Translations under genes and position numbers: made by a program | Origin: a virus | Virus record (IMG/VR): IMGVR_UViG_3300036773_000146 | Coordinates: 85,736 to 149,735 of that record | Length of the DNA stretch: 64,000 nt | Reading direction: 5' to 3' (one strand) | The notes under the pieces: model-generated | Told to the model about the DNA's origin: nothing | Seen by the model: only the letters and a program-made list of their open reading frames with translations | Databases searched by the model: none | Shown: positions 18,980-63,884 of the stretch, one piece after another | Layout: each line of letters starts with the position of its first letter | Numbering within the stretch: position 1 is the stretch's first letter

Positions 18980-19633
18980 TCACCAGATGGCCAGCCACGG
19001 AGCCCGGGTGGTCGGCGCCAGACTCGTCATGGTCAGCGCCGAGGGCAGCGCGGTGAGCCCGGTCCCGTAGGAGGCCTGCCGGTAGATGCCCTGGGTGATC
19101 AGCTGACCGGAGCCGACTCCGGCGACCGACGGTGCCGAGCCGACCAGCGTGGGCATGACCGTGCCGACGATCAGCGCGGCCGCGTAGCAGGCGCCGGTGC
19201 CGTCCAGGGTCGCCGGAGTCAGCAGAGCCGGGCCGTACTCCCCGGGCGCCGTCAGCAGGGACGTCAGATCGGTCGTCTGGCCGAGCAGCATGCCGTTGAT
19301 GTCGTAGAGGCCCAGGATGTTGCTCCCGGTCGTCAGCGTGCCGCTGGTGGCCAGCGCGAGGCTCATCCCGGACACCGACTGGCCGTCCACCCACTGCGGG
19401 ATCCGCTGGAGCATGAGCACGCCGGACACGGGGGTGATGGCCGGGGTGATGATGGCCGGATCGTGGCTCCAGCCGAGGTAGCCGTAATCGGCCGGGCCCG
19501 GGGTGGCCAGAGCCTGCATGGCCGCGCGGGACGCGCCCTGTACACCGGTCTCCAGGGTGGTCAGGCGCAGAGCGTTCACCGGTGTCTGCCCGGCGACACC
19601 GTCGATCCAGGTCTGCGGGTCGTAGACGGTCAT
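18980..19633 (-). CDS. Minor tail / fibre-associated protein
   Basis: MTVYDPQTW...TPVNALRLTTLETGV is a typical fibre N-terminus; last gene of the tail operon. Confidence 0.6.
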   Translation of the reverse strand: MTVYDPQTWIDGVAGQTPVNALRLTTLETGVQGASRAAMQALATPGPADYGYLGWSHDPAIITPAITPVSGVLMLQRIPQWVDGQSVSGMSLALATSGTLTTGSNILGLYDINGMLLGQTTDLTSLLTAPGEYGPALLTPATLDGTGACYAAALIVGTVMPTLVGSAPSVAGVGSGQLITQGIYRQASYGTGLTALPSALTMTSLAPTTRAPWLAIW

Positions 19634-22600
19634 CAGGACACTCCCGGGTAAAGGGTCGAGGAGGGGAACATCAGCGGGTCGGGGTAGTTGGCCAGCGTGG
19701 CGTTCTGGTTCGCCGGAGGCAGGGCCTGCGCCCGCTGGATGATCTTGAACTTGTACCACCACCAGCGCGGCACCGGCTTGTTCCACACCTGGAACCGGGC
19801 GTCGGCGCGGATGTCGCCGTAGTCGTCGTAGGGCATGACGTTCGGCGACGAAGCCACGAGCCCAGCCCGGTGGTCGATGCCGCTCATCAGGCCGCCGTAC
19901 CAGGGCCGGATCACCAGGGAGCTGATCGTGGAACCGGCCTTGTGGGAGACGGCCTTCCAGACCAGGGCGGTGCCCGGCTTCTGGTTCAAGTTGATCACCG
20001 GCAGTGTCTCCGGGAAGACCAAGACCCCCTCGGGGTTGTTGCGTACCTCGTAGGCCGGGAACCAGGTGAAGCCGCCGTCATTGGAGAAGCTCCACACGAT
20101 CGGGTCGGCGAACAAACTGATCGTGTCCACGTCCCACTTGTCCGACGTCGGACCGCGCTGCACGACCCGGGCCATGACCATCTGCGTGGTGCTGGGCTTC
20201 TGGGCCATGATCTGGCCGTAGGTCAGGGTGCCGTTCTTGGTCACCTGGCCCCAGGTCGGCGCGCCCGACGGATTGGCCAGCAGCAGGGCGTTGGGGCCCC
20301 AGTTGAACCCGGCGAAGCTGGTGTCGATGCTGTAGTTCGGGCCGTCCGGGCGGGTGACGCCGACGAACATCGAGCCCGCCACGCCGCGCTTCGTACCGGT
20401 GATCAGGACGCTGTTGGCGAGTAGCACCGTGCCGACGACCGTGCGCGAGACCAGGGTCTGCACCGTGCGCAGGCTGGGCAGCGCCGAGTTGTACTCGCGC
20501 TGGTTGAGGAAGGCGATCTGGATGTCGGTGTTCATCGGGAGCGGCGCGGGCACCAGCCCGGCCTGGATGATCGTGCCGTTCTGCACGAGGTTGCCGCTGG
20601 CGTCCAGGTAGATCCCGGCGTCGAAATCGAGGCAGGCCACGTTGCCGTAGACCGGACCGAACACGATGTTGTCCAGGCCGAAGGTCGCGCCGGAGGCCAG
20701 GACGCCGGTGAGGTAGACCACCGCCTGGACCGCGTTCGTCGGCGCCAGGTGGTAGGTGGCCACGTTCACCCAGGCACTGGTGGTGGCGGTGACCGATTGC
20801 GTCGTGGTGGACAGCACCGTGCCGGACGTATTGCGCCACTCCACGTTCATCGTGAGCAGCGTGGTCGCCGCGCTGGGCTTGACGTCGGCCCGGAACTTGT
20901 AGACCGAACCGGCGACCAGGCCGGTGATCGCCGCCGAGGTGCCGACTCCGAAGGCAGCGCTGCTGGTCGAGGTCACCAGGCAATACGCGCTGCTGCTGTA
21001 CGGGCCGCCGGTGGACTGCCAGGCCAGCGTCGCGCTACTGCGCCCGGCCCAGCCGGTCGTGTTGGTGGTGAAGCTCGGGTTGGGTGCGAGGTTGGCGGAA
21101 ACCGCCAGGCTGCGCAGCCGCAGCGACATCACGCCTTCCCACTGGGCGACGTCCGTCCAGAAGACCGCGTCGTTGCTGGACACCACCAGCGGCGGTTTCA
21201 TGTCGTCGCGCCCGGCGGCCTCGACGCCGTTCGTGGCGTCCCAGCTCGCCAGCGGCGTGGTGGCCAGGTTGGACGAGCCCACCTGCCAGTTTGTCGGGCC
21301 GAAGGCATCCAGCCAGAGCTGCATCGTGGTTGCGTCGATCCAGCCGCCGTTGCCGTTGCGCGGTACGCCGACGACTGCGTTGCCCTGTACCCGGCCGTAG
21401 TCGGCGGGAACCCAGGAGAAGCGGGTGAAGCGCTGGCCGAGGCGGCCCTTGATGCCGACGGTGCCGGGCAGGCCCAGGCTGTGGTTGCGGGTGCATTTCC
21501 AGACACCGTTCACCCAGAACATGTAGGCGTACTGGGCGTAGGGGCTCGGGCTGGGGTCCAGCTTGCCCGAGGGCACCTGGTCCGCTGGCAGGCAATCGAT
21601 CCGGATCACGTCGCCCGCCACCACCGTGTACGGGGTGTTGTTGTTCGTGAGCACGTAGGCACGGGTGGGGTCCGGCACGCTCCCGCCGAGGTTGCCGAGG
21701 TAGCCGGTTTCGGTGATGAAGAGCGGGTTGGCCCGGATCAGGGCCACCGTCGAGGTCGCCGACGAGCCCATGGTGCCCACGGTGACCGTGAGCGTGCCCC
21801 AGGGCGATCCGGTGTTGACCCAGTCGTACTGGCCCTCCACGGTCGACTGGGCGGCGTTGGAGACGAGATCGAGTGACGACTCGTTGCCGGATCCGTCGAC
21901 CGGCCAGTTCCAGGACTGACCGGTGTCCATCGGCGGCAGGGTGGTCTGGTTCGCCGCGCTGAAGCTCGCGACCATGCTCGGACTGGTGTAGCCGGTTGCG
22001 AAATCGCGGTAGAGCCAGGGCGTATTCGTCACGCCGTCGCCGACGGTGTAATCGGAGTACCACTCGACGATCTGGCCCGCCTTCACCACGGCGTCGCTCT
22101 CGGCCAGGATGGCCTGGGTCCCGGCGTCCACGATCTGCACGGACAACGGCAGCGTGAGGTCCTTCTGGGCGGTTACCCGGGCCGCGACATGCACCCGGCC
22201 CCCGGCGGGCAGTGCGATGGGCGTCGAGGAGATCCCGCCGTCCTCGCCGGGGACCTGGGAACCGGCCATGATCTGGCCGTAGGAGGCGTTCTGCGCGAGG
22301 AAGGCTCCGTAGGTGCCGTACCCGGCCGCGACGGCGCCCCAGGTCATCGGCGGTTCGGACCGGTCGATCCGGCGCGTCGAGTCCAGGGTCGGGTTCTGGC
22401 TGGAGGAGTCGGAGAGCACCGCGTCGCCGACGACCGTCCAGCTGGCCATGGTCGGGTCGGTCAGGTCCGGGTCGGCGAGCAGCTGTACCGGTTCGGACTG
22501 CTGCGCAGCGAACTGGACGGCCGACACGACACGGTTCGAGGGGAACGGCTGGCTCTTCACCTCGGAGTAGCTGCTCTGCCCGGACGTGAGCAGATGATCT

Positions 22601-24942
22601 TCGGTCAGTATCCAGTTGCCCTGCGCGGAGAGGTTCGCGGTGTCGTAGAACATTTCCACGTACTGCGGCGCGTCGTCGGTGGACACGTAGTTGAGCTTGT
22701 AGGCACCGACCGAGCGGAGCCCGACCATGTATCCGATCTTGGTGACCTGGGTGTAGTCGATCACCTGGTAGGTGTGCAGGCCGGTGGACTCGAAGCTCGG
22801 CGTCACGCCGGTGGTGTGCGTGGGCAGGAAGCTCCACGCCCAGTACGCCTCGCCGATGCGGGCTCGTGCTTCCTCGTCGTAGACGATGCGCGCCGTGGTC
22901 TTGCTCGACGTCGCCCCGGTACCGACGATGGCCGTCTGGCCGCCGTCGAGCGTCTGGGTCAGGGTGTTGACGGTGTAGACGTTGTTCTGGCCGGGGAAGA
23001 GGGCGCTCAGCCCGGCCGTAGAGACGTTCCCCGTGTCGCTGACGGCCCGCTGCCACATCGCCGAGGGGAAGACCTGCACGCTCTTCTGGACGGGCTTGTA
23101 GACCTCGTAGGGCTGCGGGCTGAGGTTGGTGAACTCCAGCTTCCAGTACTTGGCCCGCTGCGGGCTGAAGCTCATGTAGCCCTTGCGCAGGATGTAGCTG
23201 CGGGCGATGGGGGTCCACTCCATGTCCGCGTAGCGGTCCGGCGCGCCGCCGATCATCGCGGCCGGGAAGTCGACGGTGTAGAGGCTCGGGTGGTAGCGCA
23301 CCAACGCGTTGTCCGTACGCGGGTCGTTGACGCCCAGGTAGGTCGAGCCCAGCACGTACGGGAACGGATCGGTGAGGAAGTCCTCGCGGGTGGCGTCGTC
23401 CAGCACCGCGTCCTGCTTGATCACCAGCGCCTGCATGATGCCCTTGAACACGCCGGGGCTGGTGCCGAGCCAGCCGCCGATGCGGATGGTGGTGACGTCC
23501 TGGACGAACGCCACGCTGACCGCCTGGGAGCCGCTGAACTCGACCCGGCCGTAGCGGACGGCCACGCCGAAGTCCGTGCCGTCATACCAGGCGGTGAAGT
23601 TCAACGGCGTGTTCGGATCGAAGCCGAGGAAGACCGGGTCCGGGTCGCCCAGCTGCGGGTCGGGACCGGGGGTGGTGATGTCGGCCGCGCCCACACCCAG
23701 CGGCGCCGTCTGGGTGACCAGCAGAAGGGCATCGCCGAACTCGGTGGTCAGCAACGGCCCCTGCGGCGTCCAGGTCAGCGTGAAGGCTCCGCAATCGATG
23801 ATCGGGTGGTCGTCGTTCTGAGTGCCGTGGGCGAACTTCCAGTTCAGCTGGCCGCCCACCCACCAGGGGCGCGACGGGTCGAAGCTGATGCCCCGGTTGT
23901 CGAGGTCGACGAAGCCGATCGCGTCGATCAGCGTCGGGTCGTTGAAGTGCAGGACGTCGCCGGTGATGCCCTGGCTGTTGTTGACCTGGGCGATCGCGGG
24001 TGGGATCGGATCGGAGTTGGCGGTGAACGCACCGGTGGGCTCCGAGTTCGACCAGTAGAGGTTCACCGTGGGCCCGTCGTAGAGCGGGTCCAGGTAGAGC
24101 CGGTCGAGAATCTGGCCCGCGCCGAGGGAATCCCGGCAGTCCAGGTAGTAGTTGACCACCGCCCAGGGGATCGGCTGCGGTTCGGATTTCCACACGGTGG
24201 TCAGGCCGTTCGAGCCGGAGGTCGTGCCGATGGCGTTGGTGGCCGCGTTGACGCGCACCGAGAAATCGACGACCGAGCCGAACAGGTCGCTGGTGCTGGC
24301 GAAGGTGTCGCGCTGTTCACCGGTGCCCGGGGTCGTCCACGGCACGTCGGCCAGCTGCGTGATCGCGTAGGTGAGGTTCAGGTTGCGGATGGCCAGCGAG
24401 TAGGGAATGGCGACGGCCTGGGCGTTGGTCGGCGCGTTGCCCAGCGTGCTGCGCGAGAGCAGGATGCGCAGGTTCTTCGTCGATACCGGCTTGATCGAGA
24501 AGCTGACCGTGCGCCAGTGGCCGGTGAAGCTGTGCTGCGGGTGCAGGTGACCACTGACCGACTGAGGCGAGGGCAGGACGCCGGGCACCGAGTCGCGCAC
24601 GGCCGCCGAGATCGGCACCGGCGAGGCCGCGCTGGCGTCCAGGCATGCGGTCCAGACCTTCGTCTGGTCGTCGTAGAACTCGACGGTCACGTCCTGCGGG
24701 AAGATCGCGACATCGAACTCCAGCTGGTTGATCCGGCGCGCGGCCGCCAGGGTGATCTGCATGACCTCCCGCGAGGTGTCCGTCGCCGCGCGGGCCGGAG
24801 TCGACCAGAAACGCTGTGTGTCCACGCTCTGCTGGGTCGAGCCGACCTGGTTCTGCTGGATGCCCTCGACGAGGTCGTCCAGGCTCATGCCGCCCGTCCA
24901 GGCACCGGCGACGGCGGAATTCGGGTCGGGCGTCGTCGTCAT
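19633..24942 (-). CDS. Large baseplate/tail protein (about 1769 aa) with carbohydrate-binding-like domains
   Basis: Start MTTTPDPNS overlaps the upstream stop; beta-rich; NLAPNPSFTTNTTGW CBM4/9-like module. Confidence 0.75.
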   Translation of the reverse strand: MTTTPDPNSAVAGAWTGGMSLDDLVEGIQQNQVGSTQQSVDTQRFWSTPARAATDTSREVMQITLAAARRINQLEFDVAIFPQDVTVEFYDDQTKVWTACLDASAASPVPISAAVRDSVPGVLPSPQSVSGHLHPQHSFTGHWRTVSFSIKPVSTKNLRILLSRSTLGNAPTNAQAVAIPYSLAIRNLNLTYAITQLADVPWTTPGTGEQRDTFASTSDLFGSVVDFSVRVNAATNAIGTTSGSNGLTTVWKSEPQPIPWAVVNYYLDCRDSLGAGQILDRLYLDPLYDGPTVNLYWSNSEPTGAFTANSDPIPPAIAQVNNSQGITGDVLHFNDPTLIDAIGFVDLDNRGISFDPSRPWWVGGQLNWKFAHGTQNDDHPIIDCGAFTLTWTPQGPLLTTEFGDALLLVTQTAPLGVGAADITTPGPDPQLGDPDPVFLGFDPNTPLNFTAWYDGTDFGVAVRYGRVEFSGSQAVSVAFVQDVTTIRIGGWLGTSPGVFKGIMQALVIKQDAVLDDATREDFLTDPFPYVLGSTYLGVNDPRTDNALVRYHPSLYTVDFPAAMIGGAPDRYADMEWTPIARSYILRKGYMSFSPQRAKYWKLEFTNLSPQPYEVYKPVQKSVQVFPSAMWQRAVSDTGNVSTAGLSALFPGQNNVYTVNTLTQTLDGGQTAIVGTGATSSKTTARIVYDEEARARIGEAYWAWSFLPTHTTGVTPSFESTGLHTYQVIDYTQVTKIGYMVGLRSVGAYKLNYVSTDDAPQYVEMFYDTANLSAQGNWILTEDHLLTSGQSSYSEVKSQPFPSNRVVSAVQFAAQQSEPVQLLADPDLTDPTMASWTVVGDAVLSDSSSQNPTLDSTRRIDRSEPPMTWGAVAAGYGTYGAFLAQNASYGQIMAGSQVPGEDGGISSTPIALPAGGRVHVAARVTAQKDLTLPLSVQIVDAGTQAILAESDAVVKAGQIVEWYSDYTVGDGVTNTPWLYRDFATGYTSPSMVASFSAANQTTLPPMDTGQSWNWPVDGSGNESSLDLVSNAAQSTVEGQYDWVNTGSPWGTLTVTVGTMGSSATSTVALIRANPLFITETGYLGNLGGSVPDPTRAYVLTNNNTPYTVVAGDVIRIDCLPADQVPSGKLDPSPSPYAQYAYMFWVNGVWKCTRNHSLGLPGTVGIKGRLGQRFTRFSWVPADYGRVQGNAVVGVPRNGNGGWIDATTMQLWLDAFGPTNWQVGSSNLATTPLASWDATNGVEAAGRDDMKPPLVVSSNDAVFWTDVAQWEGVMSLRLRSLAVSANLAPNPSFTTNTTGWAGRSSATLAWQSTGGPYSSSAYCLVTSTSSAAFGVGTSAAITGLVAGSVYKFRADVKPSAATTLLTMNVEWRNTSGTVLSTTTQSVTATTSAWVNVATYHLAPTNAVQAVVYLTGVLASGATFGLDNIVFGPVYGNVACLDFDAGIYLDASGNLVQNGTIIQAGLVPAPLPMNTDIQIAFLNQREYNSALPSLRTVQTLVSRTVVGTVLLANSVLITGTKRGVAGSMFVGVTRPDGPNYSIDTSFAGFNWGPNALLLANPSGAPTWGQVTKNGTLTYGQIMAQKPSTTQMVMARVVQRGPTSDKWDVDTISLFADPIVWSFSNDGGFTWFPAYEVRNNPEGVLVFPETLPVINLNQKPGTALVWKAVSHKAGSTISSLVIRPWYGGLMSGIDHRAGLVASSPNVMPYDDYGDIRADARFQVWNKPVPRWWWYKFKIIQRAQALPPANQNATLANYPDPLMFPSSTLYPGVS

Positions 24943-26249
24943 GCGTTTACTCCCGCGAGCGTCGAGGCCGTGTTCAGCGAGCTGCGGCCGGGTGCATAGG
25001 AGATCGAGGTCATCACGCCGTCGGTGACCAGCTCGGCGGCGGTGGCCTGGGCCACGGTCATCACGCCGTCCTTGGCCTGGTAGGACCGGTCGGTGCCGTC
25101 GGAGTAGGTGATCAGCTCGTCGTTGCCGGGCGTTACGTTGCCCATGTCGTCCAGCACCAGGCTCGTCACCGTGGTTACGTCGCCGTTGAGCGTCCACTCC
25201 TGGCCCTGGAAGCCCGAGAACACCGGGCGAGCCTGCGGGTAAACGGCCTGCTGGGCTGAGCCGGTCAGGCTGTTCGCGTAGGGGTTGAAGTTCAGGTTGG
25301 CGCTCGGCGTGACCTCGGAGACGATCTCCCAGCACTCCGAGCTGGCCGATACGGTCCGGATGGCCAGCGGCAGGCTCACCGTCAGGCCCTTGGGCGAGAC
25401 GGTGAACTGGGTCCCGGCGGGCTTGAAGACGTTCAGCACCCGTACCACCTGGTACTGCTCGTCGGTGGAAAGCGCCCGCTTCGGGTAGATCACCCACTCG
25501 GACCGGTTGCGGGTGTTCGTCCGGCCGGAGAACAGCTGGCCCGCGCCGGACCAGTCGCCGTAGGTCTTCTGCGCCATGGCGCCGTAGGTCTTGACGTTGT
25601 CGCGCAGGAATCCCCAGGTGTAGGTGAGGATCCCGGAGCTGAAGCGCCCGGCGTTCTGCTCGTCGATCCAGTTCCAGGACTCGTAGATCTCGACCTCGGT
25701 ACCGATCAGCGCCTCGGCCATCAGTTTGAGCCCGGCGTAGCTGGCGCCGTACGGGATCGAGCGGGTGAACTTGATCAGCCGGTCGCGGTAACTGGCGTCG
25801 CGCGAGTGCAGGTCGTCCCACTCGGCCGGGGTCGCCGGATCGGTGTAGGGGTTGAACGCGAAGTCCGGCTGCAACTCGGCCTGGGTCCGCTGGATGCCGA
25901 AGAGGGCGCCATAGAAGCGGTCCAGGTCCAGGAAGTGCATGCCGGAGAAGGCGTTTTGCAGCCGCGCCACGGCCGTCTGCTTGCGCAGGCCGCCGACGCC
26001 GCTGGCGCCGAGCAGGACCTTGAGCAGCTTCATCAGGTTCGAGCTGTCGCGCAGATCGTAGAGCGTCGGGTCGAGGTGGCTCAGGCGGCTGCTGGTGAGC
26101 CGGTCCGGCACGATCGGGTCGGACACCTGGAAGACGCCCTGGGAGACGTCCGGCTGGCCGGGGGTCAGCTGCTGGGAGAGCAGGCTCTTCGTGGCGTCGC
26201 TATCGAAGCTCTGGAAGAAGCTGGGGTTGTCGATCCAGGTCCCGGCCAT
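24939..26249 (-). CDS. Baseplate wedge protein (gpI-like)
   Basis: LDLDRFYGALFGIQR...DASYRDRL; follows the baseplate J gene. Confidence 0.65.
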   Translation of the reverse strand: MAGTWIDNPSFFQSFDSDATKSLLSQQLTPGQPDVSQGVFQVSDPIVPDRLTSSRLSHLDPTLYDLRDSSNLMKLLKVLLGASGVGGLRKQTAVARLQNAFSGMHFLDLDRFYGALFGIQRTQAELQPDFAFNPYTDPATPAEWDDLHSRDASYRDRLIKFTRSIPYGASYAGLKLMAEALIGTEVEIYESWNWIDEQNAGRFSSGILTYTWGFLRDNVKTYGAMAQKTYGDWSGAGQLFSGRTNTRNRSEWVIYPKRALSTDEQYQVVRVLNVFKPAGTQFTVSPKGLTVSLPLAIRTVSASSECWEIVSEVTPSANLNFNPYANSLTGSAQQAVYPQARPVFSGFQGQEWTLNGDVTTVTSLVLDDMGNVTPGNDELITYSDGTDRSYQAKDGVMTVAQATAAELVTDGVMTSISYAPGRSSLNTASTLAGVNA

Positions 26250-59313: not shown

Positions 59314-61581
59314 TCAGAGGAACAGGCCGGACGGGTCGACCTCGCCGTTGAGCATGGCCTCCTCCAGCAGGGCGTAGTGCGTCCCGTCGATCTTCAGGTC
59401 ACCGAAGTTGCGGGCGCGGGCGTCCTCGGCGCCCTCGTTGATCAGCTCGCGTTGCTCGGCCGGGCTGAACTCGGTCAGAGCCGACTTGCTCAGGTGCGAC
59501 CGTGCGGCCGCCGCGATGTCGTCGGCGTCCGCGTCCGTGGGCATCATCAGGGCCTGCGCGGCCGCCGACTTCTGGAAGTCGGCCACGATCTCCGCCGCCG
59601 TCCGCGACGAGTGGTAGGTGTTCGGGGTGGCCGAGCCGCCGTCCTGCAACGTGATGCCGGGCGTCGACTGGTACGGGTCCGGCTGGGCCTCATCATCCGG
59701 AACCGGGTCGAGGTCCTCCTGGCTGAACTCCGGGTGGTACTCGGCGCCGCCGTCCGTGGAGGGCAGCGCGGGCTCCGGCTGCGCGTGCAGCGTGGAGTCG
59801 AAGGACATGTTCGTGGTGAGGCTGGTCGGGCTGGCGTCGAGGTTGTCCCAGTTGGACGGGTCGTCGGACGTGGCGAACCCGGTGCTGACCGGGTTCTTCG
59901 AGGTGGAGTGCTCCGGCTCGGACAGGTTGCGGCCCGGCTGGCTGACCGTGGTGTTGCTGATCGGGTCCCAGCTGGAGGCCGTTTTGGCCGTGTCCAGGCT
60001 GGCCCGTTCGATCTCCTTCCACGGCGTGTTCGCCTTGACCTCCGGGCGCAGGTTCGGGATCTTCTTTGCGTGCTCGACAGACCACCAGGCAGCCTGCTCA
60101 TGGTGGTCACCCTTGGGGTCGTCAGGGTTGGGCACGACGCGACCGTCCTTCATGGACAGATCCTTCTCGGATGGGATCACCACCACGTGGCCCTGGTACA
60201 CCCCATTCGGACTGGTCCAGGTGTGCTTGACGACGCCGTGCAGCGGAAACTCCTGGCCAACCTCCTCTTCGAACTCGCGGATGCCCGCGTGCAGGCTGGT
60301 GAGGTCGCCGGACTCGTGGTGGCCACCAGGCATTTCCCAGGTACCCGCCGCCGGATCCTTCTCGTCCTCCAGGCCGCGTTGGAGCATCAGCACGCGGCCG
60401 GTGTCGTGCGCTTTCAGGGCGATACCGGAGACCGTCGGGCCGGGAGTGTCTTCCTTGGCCGCGAGCACCGGGCCCAGCTCGCCAGCGTCCACCATGTCCA
60501 GCGCAGCCTCATGGTGGCCCTCCTCGACGTGTGCGGTCTTCCACAGCTCGCGCGCGGCGGCGTGCTTCATACCGGTCTGGATCAGGGTGCCGATGATCTC
60601 GGCCGGGTCGACATCGTCGGCCCGGAGGTGGGCCACGGCCACGGCGGCCAGCGAGCCTTCGTACGGGCGTGCGAAGACACTCTGCCCGTTGTCCGGGTCG
60701 TACTTGACCACGGTGGGCACCGTGCGCGCGGGCTCGGCCGGATGGATCTCCTTGCCGAACATGCCTTGGGACTGGGCCTCGAACTGGAGGGCCAGGGCGT
60801 GCGAGCACTTGCGGCCCTCGAAGTGCTTGAAAGCCGGGGACCGGTCGAAGGCGTAGGCGGCCCAGGCGCAGCCGCAGGTCCAGTCGGCGACCTTGTGCGT
60901 GCCGGGCCGGAACACGAGGATCGCCTCGTAGGTGTGCTTGTCGCCCTTCACCTGGCCGCCGATGCCGTCGTTGGAGGCGATGACGATGGTCACGCCGCCC
61001 TCGGCGCGGATGCGCTTGGCCTTGCGCTGCACGTCGGCCCATGACGCGGTGACTTCGAAGCCCAGTTCCCGGTCGCGGGCGGCGGTACGCAGGATGCCCA
61101 TGAAGTCGAGGTTCTTGCGGGCGCGCCACTTCGCCTCGTCGGTGGGCCGGTGCAGGTCCTCCAGCGCGGCGTTGGCCGGATGGTCGAGGTTCATGTGCGG
61201 TCCCGCCGGATCCTCGTACTTGTCCAGGAAGGCTTGGCCGGACGGCGACTTGGCGCCGTGATCGAACATGTGGGCCGGGTGCTGGCCGCGCAGCTCGTCC
61301 ATCATGGCCGAGCCGACACCCCGGCCCCGATCGCCGTACGTCTTGATCATGTGGATGGCGACGGTCGGATGCGGGTGGCCGTCGGGAGTCGCGCTGTAGT
61401 TGAGGATGCCGTCCGGACGACCCCGCTCGCTGCCGGGCAGGTGGGCGTAGATCTGCCGATGCGCCCAGCCCGGGTGCGTTTGCTCGTTCTCGTACTCGTA
61501 CGGATCGATGCCGGTCGTGAAGCGAAGGCCCTCCGGCGGCTCCGGGTGGTTGCGCGAGGGCATCGCCGTGCGGTGGTCCAT
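59314..61581 (-). CDS. Multidomain head-region protein: GNAT-like, SWIM zinc finger, Nudix, acidic tail
   Basis: RGRGVGSAMM...SPSGQAF; WTCGCAW...KCSHALA; WEMPGG...AGIREFEEEVG Nudix box. Confidence 0.8.
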   Translation of the reverse strand: MDHRTAMPSRNHPEPPEGLRFTTGIDPYEYENEQTHPGWAHRQIYAHLPGSERGRPDGILNYSATPDGHPHPTVAIHMIKTYGDRGRGVGSAMMDELRGQHPAHMFDHGAKSPSGQAFLDKYEDPAGPHMNLDHPANAALEDLHRPTDEAKWRARKNLDFMGILRTAARDRELGFEVTASWADVQRKAKRIRAEGGVTIVIASNDGIGGQVKGDKHTYEAILVFRPGTHKVADWTCGCAWAAYAFDRSPAFKHFEGRKCSHALALQFEAQSQGMFGKEIHPAEPARTVPTVVKYDPDNGQSVFARPYEGSLAAVAVAHLRADDVDPAEIIGTLIQTGMKHAAARELWKTAHVEEGHHEAALDMVDAGELGPVLAAKEDTPGPTVSGIALKAHDTGRVLMLQRGLEDEKDPAAGTWEMPGGHHESGDLTSLHAGIREFEEEVGQEFPLHGVVKHTWTSPNGVYQGHVVVIPSEKDLSMKDGRVVPNPDDPKGDHHEQAAWWSVEHAKKIPNLRPEVKANTPWKEIERASLDTAKTASSWDPISNTTVSQPGRNLSEPEHSTSKNPVSTGFATSDDPSNWDNLDASPTSLTTNMSFDSTLHAQPEPALPSTDGGAEYHPEFSQEDLDPVPDDEAQPDPYQSTPGITLQDGGSATPNTYHSSRTAAEIVADFQKSAAAQALMMPTDADADDIAAAARSHLSKSALTEFSPAEQRELINEGAEDARARNFGDLKIDGTHYALLEEAMLNGEVDPSGLFL

Positions 61582-63884
61582 CAGTCCTCCGTACCGAGTG
61601 CCGTGCGCATCTGGGCGGCGATGCGGTGCAGGGCGGCCGTGCTCTGCGGCGTGCGGGCCAACTGCTCCGCGCGCTGTTTCATGGCTTCATCACGACGCTG
61701 CTGGCGTTCCGGCGTCATGACCTCGGCGAGATCGATCCCGGGCCGCTTGCTCGCACGCGGCGACGGGTAAGGACAGAGGTGGTTGGTGCAGTACTTGGTC
61801 TTCACGCCGTCCGGATGATCCACCCTGTCCAGATGATCTTTGATCTGACTCTTCAGGCTCTGCGCGCGAGTAACTCGTTGCTGGGCCAGCTCTTCATCCG
61901 AGACCGCGTCTGCATGGCCCGTACCGCCGCAGTCCTCGCACGTCTCACGGCGCATCCGATAGGCATCCGGATCCTCATCGGGGTGGATGTCCTGCTTCTC
62001 TTGGTAACTGGGGTCGGGCTCCTCAATGTCGTAGTGGCCCTTGCCGCCGCACTCCGGACACGGACCGGCCGGGATGGCACCCTCGGCCGTCAGCGAGCCT
62101 TTCGCGTGCATGAGCGCCATCGGGCCCGGCTCCGAGATCGGGCACACCTGCTGCTGCCAGGGTGTCTCCCACGGACACGGCCCCCGGTCCTGGGGGATGG
62201 CCAGGGACACGGCCGTGGAGTCACCGGGGAAGGTGCAGCGAGCCTCGCGGCGCCAGGTGCACCAGTCGTGCCCGGCCAGGGCGGCCGTGGTGTTCAGCGC
62301 TGCGGCAGTGCCTGCAAGTCCTGCTCCACCTTCGCGAGCGCCTGCTGCACCTCGGGCGTCTGCTCCTTGGCCTCCAGCTCCATGCGCAGCTGCTGGAGCT
62401 GTTCCGCGTTCGGCAGCTTCGTCGTCATGGATGCCCTCCAGGTGGTGCCCGACGGCCTGCGCGGCCGGGCTGGGATTCGGCGAGTGATGGTGCTCAGCAT
62501 AAAGCTCGGCGACCAGTTCGTTCGGACTCGTCGCCGCGTAGGTGCCCACGTGGTTGATGATGTGCTCGCGGTTGCGCTGGACCCAGTCGTCCGCATCCTT
62601 GCCGTGCCCCATGCCGTGAAACGGCTCGGCGCCCGGGATGTGCCGGGACACGTCGTGCAGCATGGCCGAGCGTGCCGTGGTGCTTTTCAAGGATCGGTCA
62701 CCGAATTGCTTGTCGTCCATGAAATGGCCGAACTCGTGCGCGGTGACATGCCCGAGTAGTGACCGCGCACCCGACTTCGCGAACCAGGGCGTGTCCGGGT
62801 GGTTGCCCTCGTGCTCATCATGAGCCAGATCGTGGCGGATGGTGATGTCGCCCCGGCCGTACATGCCCAGCGCGTTATCGGGCAACCCGGCATTATCGTG
62901 AGGGTGCTCGATGTTGACCGAGGGCCAGCCGATGTGGTGCCCGACTGCACTGCTCATGCGCCGGATGTTGCCGGACAGGTGGGTCGCCACGGCGGCCTTG
63001 GCGTCCGGACGCACGTCGGCGAGAGTGCGGAAGTTGAACCGGGGCACACCGTGCTCCCGGTGATGCGCGGCCAGCGGGTGGTCTTCGTCGGCGTAGTCGC
63101 TGTTGTCCTCGTAGCGGTGGCTGAGGTGTTCGTAGTGCTGGCTGAGCTTGTCGAAGCGCTCGCCGGGGCTGTCGTCGTGGCTCAGCAGCGGGAGACCGGA
63201 CTCGCGGACCTGGTCGTTCTCTTTGGCGCCCGCCTCGTGCAGCGCGGCCGCCGTGCTCACCCGTGCGTCGAAGTCGATCAGGTCGTTGATTCCGGCCTGG
63301 CCGCCTGCGCCGGACGCGCCCGAGGCCGGATCGACGGTGGCGCTCGGATGGTTCGAGGGGTCACCGATCAGCTCCGGCGTCCACTGCGCGCCGGGGTGCG
63401 CCGACATGGTGCCGCCGCAGGTGGCGCAGGTAGCCTGCTTGACCCGGCCGTTGTCGGTCTGGCCGGTGAAGTCCTGAGAGCCGCAGTACGAGCACGAGTC
63501 CGGCTGGTCGGTGTCCCGCAGCTGCGCACCCTCCTCCGGTGCCTCAGCGGCCTGCTGAGCGGCCGCGAAGGTGAGCTTCCCGGGGTCGGGACGGTCATAC
63601 AGGATGGTCCCTAGCTCCTCGTAGTCCTCCGAGGCCACGTGCAGACCGGCGGCCTCGTGACCGGACGCGGTGCGGGGGTGATGCAGCGCGCTGAGCTGGC
63701 CCGAGGAATAGTCGCCGCCGCCCATGCCGTTGTGCAGCTCGACCCGGTAATTCTCGTTCCCCGGGACCGGGCCGTCGGACACCTCGATGACCGTGCCGGG
63801 GTATCCGTCGACCGTCTGGACCACATCGCCGGGGCGGTGGTCCCAGTACTGGTCGTTGTCCATCGCGTGGCGACGGTGGGTCAT
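61581..63884 (-). CDS. Multidomain head-region protein with zincin (HExxH) domain and zinc ribbons
   Basis: PGDVVQTVDG SH3/KOW-like start; CSYC/CATC; AHEFGHFMD...YAATSPNELVAE; CPECGGKG and CEDCGGTG. Confidence 0.75.
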   Translation of the reverse strand: MTHRRHAMDNDQYWDHRPGDVVQTVDGYPGTVIEVSDGPVPGNENYRVELHNGMGGGDYSSGQLSALHHPRTASGHEAAGLHVASEDYEELGTILYDRPDPGKLTFAAAQQAAEAPEEGAQLRDTDQPDSCSYCGSQDFTGQTDNGRVKQATCATCGGTMSAHPGAQWTPELIGDPSNHPSATVDPASGASGAGGQAGINDLIDFDARVSTAAALHEAGAKENDQVRESGLPLLSHDDSPGERFDKLSQHYEHLSHRYEDNSDYADEDHPLAAHHREHGVPRFNFRTLADVRPDAKAAVATHLSGNIRRMSSAVGHHIGWPSVNIEHPHDNAGLPDNALGMYGRGDITIRHDLAHDEHEGNHPDTPWFAKSGARSLLGHVTAHEFGHFMDDKQFGDRSLKSTTARSAMLHDVSRHIPGAEPFHGMGHGKDADDWVQRNREHIINHVGTYAATSPNELVAELYAEHHHSPNPSPAAQAVGHHLEGIHDDEAAERGTAPAAAHGAGGQGADARGAAGAREGGAGLAGTAAALNTTAALAGHDWCTWRREARCTFPGDSTAVSLAIPQDRGPCPWETPWQQQVCPISEPGPMALMHAKGSLTAEGAIPAGPCPECGGKGHYDIEEPDPSYQEKQDIHPDEDPDAYRMRRETCEDCGGTGHADAVSDEELAQQRVTRAQSLKSQIKDHLDRVDHPDGVKTKYCTNHLCPYPSPRASKRPGIDLAEVMTPERQQRRDEAMKQRAEQLARTPQSTAALHRIAAQMRTALGTED
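62294..62428 (-). CDS. Nested out-of-frame 44-aa helical protein
   Basis: GGAGG RBS; MTTKLPNAEQLQQLRMELEAKEQTPEVQQALAKVEQDLQALPQR; nearly all codons end in G/C in this frame. Confidence 0.55.
   Translation of the reverse strand: MTTKLPNAEQLQQLRMELEAKEQTPEVQQALAKVEQDLQALPQR

Follow-up and report, generated by a model that had tools for sequence, protein, structure and literature searches.

Out-of-frame embedded genes occur in well-studied phages, namely Rz1 within Rz in the spanin genes of phage lambda and E within D of phiX174. Peptidases that come with a small inhibitor or propeptide are also well documented and include the serralysin-Inh pair, the protealysin-emfourin operon and the thermolysin-type propeptides. 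In a set of 191 MuF toxin genes (Jamet et al. 2017, PMC5576092), a metallopeptidase domain was present in 20%, and an open reading frame (ORF) of less than 150 amino acids came next in 89.4%. The polyvalent proteins of phages and conjugative elements contain a zincin-like metallopeptidase (MPTase), for which Iyer et al. 2017 (PMC5512222) report lethal factor as the closest relative; the word "overlapping" is absent from the main text of that paper, so no nested genes are named there. Here we describe a 44-codon gene that lies out of frame inside the gene of a 767-residue protein of this type, directly behind its zincin domain. The locus was found in IMG/VR virus record IMGVR_UViG_3300036773_000146, a phage sequence of 149,735 bp with direct terminal repeats that originates from soil. 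The analysed stretch, called the window throughout, comprises the last 64 kb of this record (positions 85,736 to 149,735) and has a G+C content of 67%. We consider it likely that a zincin and its small partner gene were captured as a pair, that the zincin gene lost its stop and was read through the small gene, and that the small gene, whose translation and function we infer, still works as the partner of the zincin.

The nested ORF begins one codon beyond the conserved L-E-G sequence that closes the HEFGH-containing module (Table 1). It is a complete ORF with its own start signals, located on the same strand as the larger gene but in another frame. An initial annotation, made from the letters of the DNA alone, had placed an out-of-frame gene with a GGAGG ribosome-binding site and an ATG immediately after the zincin domain, and both its position and its start signals proved to be correct. 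The same annotation had described the long frame as a low-complexity Ala/Gly sequence with A/T-ending codons and the shifted frame as having G or C at nearly all third codon positions. This, too, agrees with what we found. The bases of the nested ORF, when read in the long frame (frame 0), encode a linker (residues 486-530) that is 61% Ala+Gly. The G+C fraction at third codon positions (GC3) of the long frame falls from ~0.9 to 0.25-0.30 over approximately 62440-62320, where that of the +1 frame reaches 0.90-1.00, and it is back at 0.95 from 62294 on, that is, from the nested stop. We compared this stretch with all 44-codon segments obtained by sliding over the high-GC3 ORFs of the window. Its long-frame GC3 of 0.295 was the lowest of the 10,394 segments, and its nested-frame GC3 was 0.95. 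The next-lowest value elsewhere, 0.386, is located in a spurious ORF extension.

The 149.7-kb phage genome has a single copy of the partner gene, the nested ORF. The single 44-residue helix initially proposed for its product did not hold up: the predicted structure (mean predicted local distance difference test score, pLDDT, of 75) consists of an extended tail (residues 1-7) and two helices (8-20 and 25-40) with a T-P-E turn between them. Pfam and PHROGs gave no significant family for either the peptide or the zincin module, neither database having an entry for the small peptide family, and the ESM Atlas contained no usable match for the peptide. Among 30 polyprotein relatives, a blastp search with the peptide detected no copy in frame. 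Hence, the helix hairpin is not merely a frameshifted C-terminal part of the zincin module.

By motif and fold the preceding module is a zincin, for which peptidase activity is predicted. The H, E and H of its HExxH motif are invariant in 10 diverse sequences. In module numbering, E242 is also invariant, and Y235, seven residues earlier, is nearly so; these may be the equivalents of the third-ligand Glu and the catalytic Tyr of lethal factor (family M34). The AlphaFold2 model of the module has a pLDDT of 82.5. Its best fold match in VIA-align is the catalytic domain of anthrax lethal factor (Z 8.4, root-mean-square deviation 4.8, 190 aligned residues). Further matches are PPEP-2/3, aminopeptidases and thermolysin, and nearly all of the rows are zincins. 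This fold evidence is modest, as the Foldseek E-values are 0.07 or worse and a Z near 8 is only moderately above background. A sequence search of the PDB with the module gave only weak metzincin matches around the HExxH motif (E 0.03 or worse).

Two compensating indels, introduced by sequencing or assembly, would produce such a frame switch, and the initial annotation had named a sequencing frameshift as a possible explanation of the pattern. Nothing beyond the frame switch itself speaks for this. The contig of the source run has a depth of 61 and shows no difference in the region. A relative that is ~91% identical and comes from a different study has substitutions only and no indel between 62290 and 62440. 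The two-frame layout recurs in at least six independent contigs from other samples, each with an ATG and a stop belonging to the +1 frame. The chance that the nested gene is an error of this kind is therefore negligible.

A gene-model artefact would be another explanation. Here, the 767-residue ORF would in reality consist of separate cistrons, and frame 0 would merely happen to be open over the small gene in a GC-rich genome. When we back-translated the peptides in simulations with phage codon usage, a fraction of 0.56-0.78 had frame 0 free of stops. Chance is thus expected to leave this frame open 56-78% of the time, and its openness is not in itself evidence of selection. Furthermore, in clade 2, where a different module (SWIM/NUDIX) occupies the same place after the nested gene, an ATG is present 8 codons after the nested stop. 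However, ribosomes arriving from the zincin module cannot terminate before 61581, since frame 0 has no stop across the nested gene. The next module in the window lacks a start codon over its first 25 residues; the first start-like codon is a GTG at 62210, which has no Shine-Dalgarno sequence. The return of frame-0 GC3 to 0.95 right after the nested stop also speaks against an artefact, and the next module is internal in all relatives, with the downstream module in frame with the zincin in both types of junction. We regard separate cistrons as very improbable. As far as can be judged from the sequence, frame 0 must be translated across the nested gene, because it has no stop there and is followed by a conserved module that has no start of its own. 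This next module starts two codons after the nested TGA, so that the shuffled unit has its boundary at the stop of the small gene.

In order to compare the two frames, we used DNA from four diverged read-through lineages: the window together with L005; L018; L017; and L006/L007/L009/L011/L012. The zincin modules of the other lineages are ~42% identical to that of the window. All four lineages keep an ATG-started ORF of 44-48 codons in the same place, with the stop retained and no internal indel. Each of them has a purine-rich GGAG-type motif 5-9 nt upstream of the ATG, and in three this motif includes the rare GGA codon for Gly. The nested peptides are 43-64% identical between lineages, with M1, P6, L11, L18, E26, V27, A30 and K33 invariant, and the product shows an invariant T-P-E-V turn region. 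The polyprotein-frame readings of the same stretch are of low complexity and only 24-43% identical. In all 8 read-through sequences GC3 is 0.81-0.98 in the nested frame versus 0.29-0.38 in the polyprotein frame, and A or T at the third positions of frame 0 persists in every lineage despite a genome-wide GC3 of ~0.9.

Substitution rates estimated by the Nei-Gojobori method (NG86) point in the same direction. For the nested frame, the nonsynonymous rate (dN) is lower than the synonymous rate (dS) in every one of the 10 lineage pairs, at ratios of 0.16-0.57, whereas in the polyprotein frame dN exceeds dS in 9 of the 10. Within clades, in which multiple hits are rare, changes silent in the nested frame are enriched per opportunity (odds ratio 2.9, p=0.0035) and those silent in the polyprotein frame are not (odds ratio 0.82, p=0.71). 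These patterns support the view that the signature of purifying selection sits in the nested frame and not in the polyprotein frame.

Several points weigh against this. The direct within-clade contrast of changes synonymous only in the nested frame with those synonymous only in the polyprotein frame is borderline (p=0.059), and the differences between the deepest clades are spread almost evenly over the codon positions (19, 16, 21). In addition, dN/dS is biased in overlapping frames, the lineage pairs are not independent, the lineages are few, and the DNA comparison left out the read-through representatives P0037, P0045 and P0048. The near-flat distribution of differences would fit a small gene that is a fossil, i.e. 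one that was captured but is no longer translated, its codon signature being a leftover and only the Ala/Gly linker being of importance. An Ala/Gly-rich frame 0 would also keep the +1 frame free of stops automatically, as those codons have no T at position 2. Against such a fossil stands the age of the clade (zincin branch lengths of 0.6-0.9 changes per site), over which four lineages have nevertheless kept the ATG, the Shine-Dalgarno motif, the position of the stop and an indel-free ORF. The A/T at third positions of frame 0 has withstood the GC3 pressure of the genome, the nested frame alone has a dN/dS below 1, the within-clade enrichment is significant, and the genome has no second copy of this partner, which is never missing elsewhere. 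We consider it unlikely that the nested gene is a fossil.

If the nested gene was captured together with the zincin, free-standing pairs might be expected, and the initial annotation had suggested a search for them, listing the lack of both homologues and translation evidence as grounds for rejecting the idea. Such pairs do exist. An exhaustive profile search with the zincin module returned 108 cluster representatives. The match extends to the end of the profile in 104 of these, and 81 of the 104 proteins have the zincin domain as their C-terminal end, with at most 12 and typically 1-6 residues following the L-E-G motif. Three zincin-ending proteins were read in their DNA context, and further loci were obtained from a scan of viral contigs. 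In L013, L014 and L022, a gene of 43-44 codons starts at the overlapping stop (TAATG or TGATG), and its product matches the peptide profile with E-values of 4e-20 to 5e-24, i.e. it is homologous to the nested ORF. All readable zincin-ending loci with recognisable homology have a homologous small gene at the overlapping stop. Small ORFs also occupy this position behind more distant zincins. That of L023 gives a weak match (E 0.009), and those of L024 to L028 have only a short P-x-E-V-like motif, which is not significant.

L016 (714-4920) is arranged differently: it has a tandem of three genes with a zincin domain at the end of each, and genes 2 and 3 have the peptide module fused in frame at the N-terminus (E 4e-6 and 3e-20). 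Behind the peptide module, these two genes share a K-V-G-P-K-G-Y-I-H-G-W motif. A small ORF right after a C-terminal effector domain and inherited together with it is thus clearly seen in L013, L014, L022 and L016. The loci with a zincin and a small gene adjoin portal and MuF-like genes. Unfortunately, other searches turned out to be less productive. When the zincin alignment was used in a word-indexed protein search, no match came up in the range of 174-566 residues, candidates probably being swamped by low-complexity words. Scans of cultured-phage and plasmid collections gave no useful match, scans of metagenome and genome contigs with zincin alignments gave pattern matches but no confirmed relative, and a scan of viral contigs with the zincin module alone confirmed no relative either.

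In a quick tree of 22 zincin domains, calculated with FastTree, the internal or read-through forms make up one clade (Shimodaira-Hasegawa-like support 95) nested among the C-terminal forms. A single read-through clade fits one ancient stop loss, and together with the free-standing pairs it supports the initial suggestion of a captured two-gene cassette. Relative to the zincin, the small gene is in the +2 frame in the free-standing forms and in the +1 frame in the read-through forms, where the ATGA is kept out of register. Hence, a one-base change of the spacer suffices for the loss of the stop. Read-through costs little, because the G/C-ending codons of the small gene rarely give stops in the zincin frame.

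The free-standing forms also bear on programmed +1 frameshifting near the ATG, which would yield a zincin-peptide fusion ending at the nested TGA beside the full-length product. The internal Shine-Dalgarno-like GGAGGG just upstream resembles that of prfB-type +1 sites, and the fusions in L016 demonstrate that the peptide module and the zincin can naturally occur in frame. However, a conserved slippery or hungry-codon site is missing, as the lineages share nothing in the 15-20 nt upstream of the ATG but the Shine-Dalgarno-like purines. The ATG, which a shift product would not need, is conserved throughout, and it is the codon at which the free-standing ancestors initiate. We find frameshifting hard to reconcile with these data and consider it very unlikely.

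The function of the small protein was approached by predicting the complex of the zincin module and the peptide. The interaction prediction score from aligned errors (ipSAE) was 0.82, and the best of 3 controls reached 0.00. The ipSAE mark was attained by 58 of 80 solved complexes and by 2 of 110 mismatched pairs, counts that are only rough, the alignments having been built for this analysis. The runs share at least 98% of their contacts, and the pLDDT of the partner is at least 87. On the module side, the modelled interface comprises H169, E170 and H173 of the HExxH motif, the edge strand 123-129, the N-R-E-H helix and residues 233-235 and 241-242. On the side of the peptide, it consists of the tail (residues 1-7) and one face of each helix and includes all 8 invariant residues (probability by chance 0.003). 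The model supports binding of the peptide over the catalytic cleft. It was derived from small, self-built alignments, and conserved hydrophobic residues would tend to sit in any modelled interface.

The interface model, the tight coupling of the genes and the N-terminal fusions in L016 suggest that the partner is most likely a cognate, active-site-covering regulator of the propeptide-like or immunity-like kind. Because the peptide module in L016 is fused to the following zincin, the peptide may serve either zincin and could be a docking tag and not an inhibitor. The main alternative to the regulator is a module with a docking or adaptor role, or else a structural subunit that can detach, which would tether what follows to the preceding zincin protein, for example for co-packaging into the head. 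The order of genes in L016 fits this, as each zincin is followed by a protein carrying the module (genes 2 and 3 begin with it), and so does the location of the loci beside portal and MuF genes. The predicted interface, however, covers the zinc-binding and catalytic residues and not a peripheral surface, and most loci have the module on its own, with no further part that could be tethered. A docking role is, in our opinion, less likely.

With the regulator as the preferred role, the captured pair probably evolved as follows. The ancestral unit would have been a virion or effector protein ending in a lethal-factor-like zincin, with its stop 1-3 residues after L-E-G, and a second gene of ~44 codons, the ATG of which overlapped this stop (TAATG, TGATG or ATGA) and the ribosome-binding site of which was formed by the L-E-G codons. 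This two-gene unit persists in many phages. In one clade, a change of one base in the spacing between L-E-G and the ATG would have shifted the ATGA out of frame, so that the stop was lost. From then on, the zincin frame would have crossed the small gene one base out of register and continued into further modules, which were presumably shuffled in later behind the stop of the small gene. The small protein would still be made by internal initiation at its own Shine-Dalgarno sequence and ATG. It would bind to the catalytic cleft of the zincin with its tail and T-P-E-V turn over the HExxH site, and this plug may hold a processing peptidase inactive in the producing cell.

A more far-reaching proposal can be made only tentatively, and we do not expect it to be correct in full. 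The nested product might act in trans as the active-site plug of a processing peptidase that is packaged in the virion, with internal initiation setting the ratio of plug to peptidase. As the plug would not be covalently attached, it could be lost on packaging or ejection, and the peptidase would cut the polyvalent protein into its effectors only in the newly infected cell. Absorption of a domain along with its partner gene by stop loss might then be a general route by which giant phage effector genes grow.

Table 1. Positions of the nested gene, its host gene and their sequence features in the 64-kb window.
Feature	Position	Strand	Remarks
Nested 44-codon gene, +1 frame of the 767-residue ORF	62294..62428	(-)	ATG 62428-62426, TGA 62296-62294
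Shine-Dalgarno-like GGAGGG	62434..62439	(-)	5 nt upstream of the nested ATG; inside the conserved L-E-G codons
Zincin-like metallopeptidase module, residues 215-485	62430..63242	(-)	Ends with L-E-G, the Shine-Dalgarno codons of the nested gene
HEFGH, residues 383-387	62738-62724	(-)	HExxH motif
N-R-E-H helix	62573-62562	(-)	
G-T-Y-A-A	62546-62532	(-)	
E-L-V-A-E-L-Y	62519-62499	(-)	
Gene of the 767-residue mosaic "polyvalent" virion protein, frame 0	61581..63884	(-)	Within the head-gene block
N-terminal module, residues 1-214	63243..63884	(-)	Common to most relatives; 55-93% identity over residues 1-215 in >20 relatives
Next polyprotein module, residues 533-598, Cys/Trp-rich, conserved	62091..62288	(-)	Starts two codons past the nested stop
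C-terminal module, two CxxCGGxG zinc-ribbon-like motifs	61581..62090	(-)	

The host gene encodes a polyvalent protein of the type described by Iyer et al. 2017 (PMC5512222). Its relatives are mosaics of 500-2700 residues, in which ART, NUDIX, GNAT (acetyltransferase), zincin and other modules appear in variable order and the N-terminal module is retained. The stop of the gene overlaps the start of a downstream gene of 755 codons with GNAT, SWIM and NUDIX modules. In the 767-residue protein and its relatives, a short S/T-T-A-A-(A)-L-like motif is found at the module boundaries (63243-63260 and 62280-62293 on the minus strand). The Cys/Trp-rich module of ~65 residues behind the nested gene (D-W-C-T-W ... 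C-P-I-S-E-P-G-P; 62091-62288) is up to 98% identical in most of the otherwise mosaic relatives. It is internal in all of them, and a T-A-A-like junction always precedes it. Pfam and PHROGs contain no significant family for this module, which may serve as an anchor or a zinc-binding hinge or mark a recombination hotspot. In L012, a gene of an HNH_3 endonuclease (L012:429-836) lies just after the first residues of the module behind the nested gene and splits the polyprotein there; it looks like a homing-type insertion.

Also of note is a listed ORF of 2062 residues elsewhere in the window (19633-25821), whose low-GC3 segments we considered as another nested gene. This was ruled out, as they are due to a spurious 5' extension of the ORF. 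Its first ~280 codons (24950-25821 on the minus strand) run across a neighbouring gene and have a GC3 of 0.4-0.5 versus at least 0.93 in another frame, and the real start is near 24950.

The arrangement at the nested gene is similar to that of Rz and Rz1 in that a complete small gene, with a Shine-Dalgarno sequence, an ATG and a stop of its own, sits inside a larger one in the same orientation, shifted to the +1 frame, and the two products presumably cooperate. It differs in that the embedded gene appears to be the older one, with the covering frame produced by stop loss and read-through and not by overprinting. Furthermore, the covering frame encodes a low-complexity linker here, and no lipoprotein or lysis role is involved. 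This origin of an overlapping gene is thus the opposite of classical overprinting: an old gene would have been covered by the read-through of its upstream neighbour, and the ancestral forms are extant. The cost of being covered is almost nil in a GC3-rich genome, and the out-of-frame reading was apparently reused as a flexible linker.

As in the serralysin-Inh and protealysin-emfourin pairs and the thermolysin-type propeptides, a small protein is encoded beside a zincin, or fused to its N-terminus in L016, and is predicted to sit over the active site. Unlike those proteins, the partner described here is a 44-residue helical hairpin. The likeness is one of arrangement, and inhibition is hypothetical.

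The ancestral pair resembles the cassettes of polymorphic and MuF toxins (PMC5576092), in which the small ORF behind the C-terminal effector domain encodes a putative immunity protein, as a head-region protein with a C-terminal metallopeptidase is followed by a small gene and the two move together. In contrast to those cassettes, the pair in the window now sits in the middle of a polyprotein, which absorbed it with its small gene out of frame, and toxicity and immunity are putative here. Gene callers predicted the small gene only on contig fragments in which the large ORF is cut (P0032-P0034). A conserved peptide family tied to the peptidase of polyvalent proteins is missing from annotation because it is invisible on complete genomes.

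In summary, the protein agrees with the polyvalent proteins (PMC5512222) in being a mosaic virion protein with ART, NUDIX, GNAT/SWIM and zincin modules that is encoded among head genes and whose HExxH domain is nearest to lethal factor. It departs from them in that the MPTase comes with a dedicated small partner, which is a candidate regulator for the restraint of zincin domains in injected multi-enzyme proteins.

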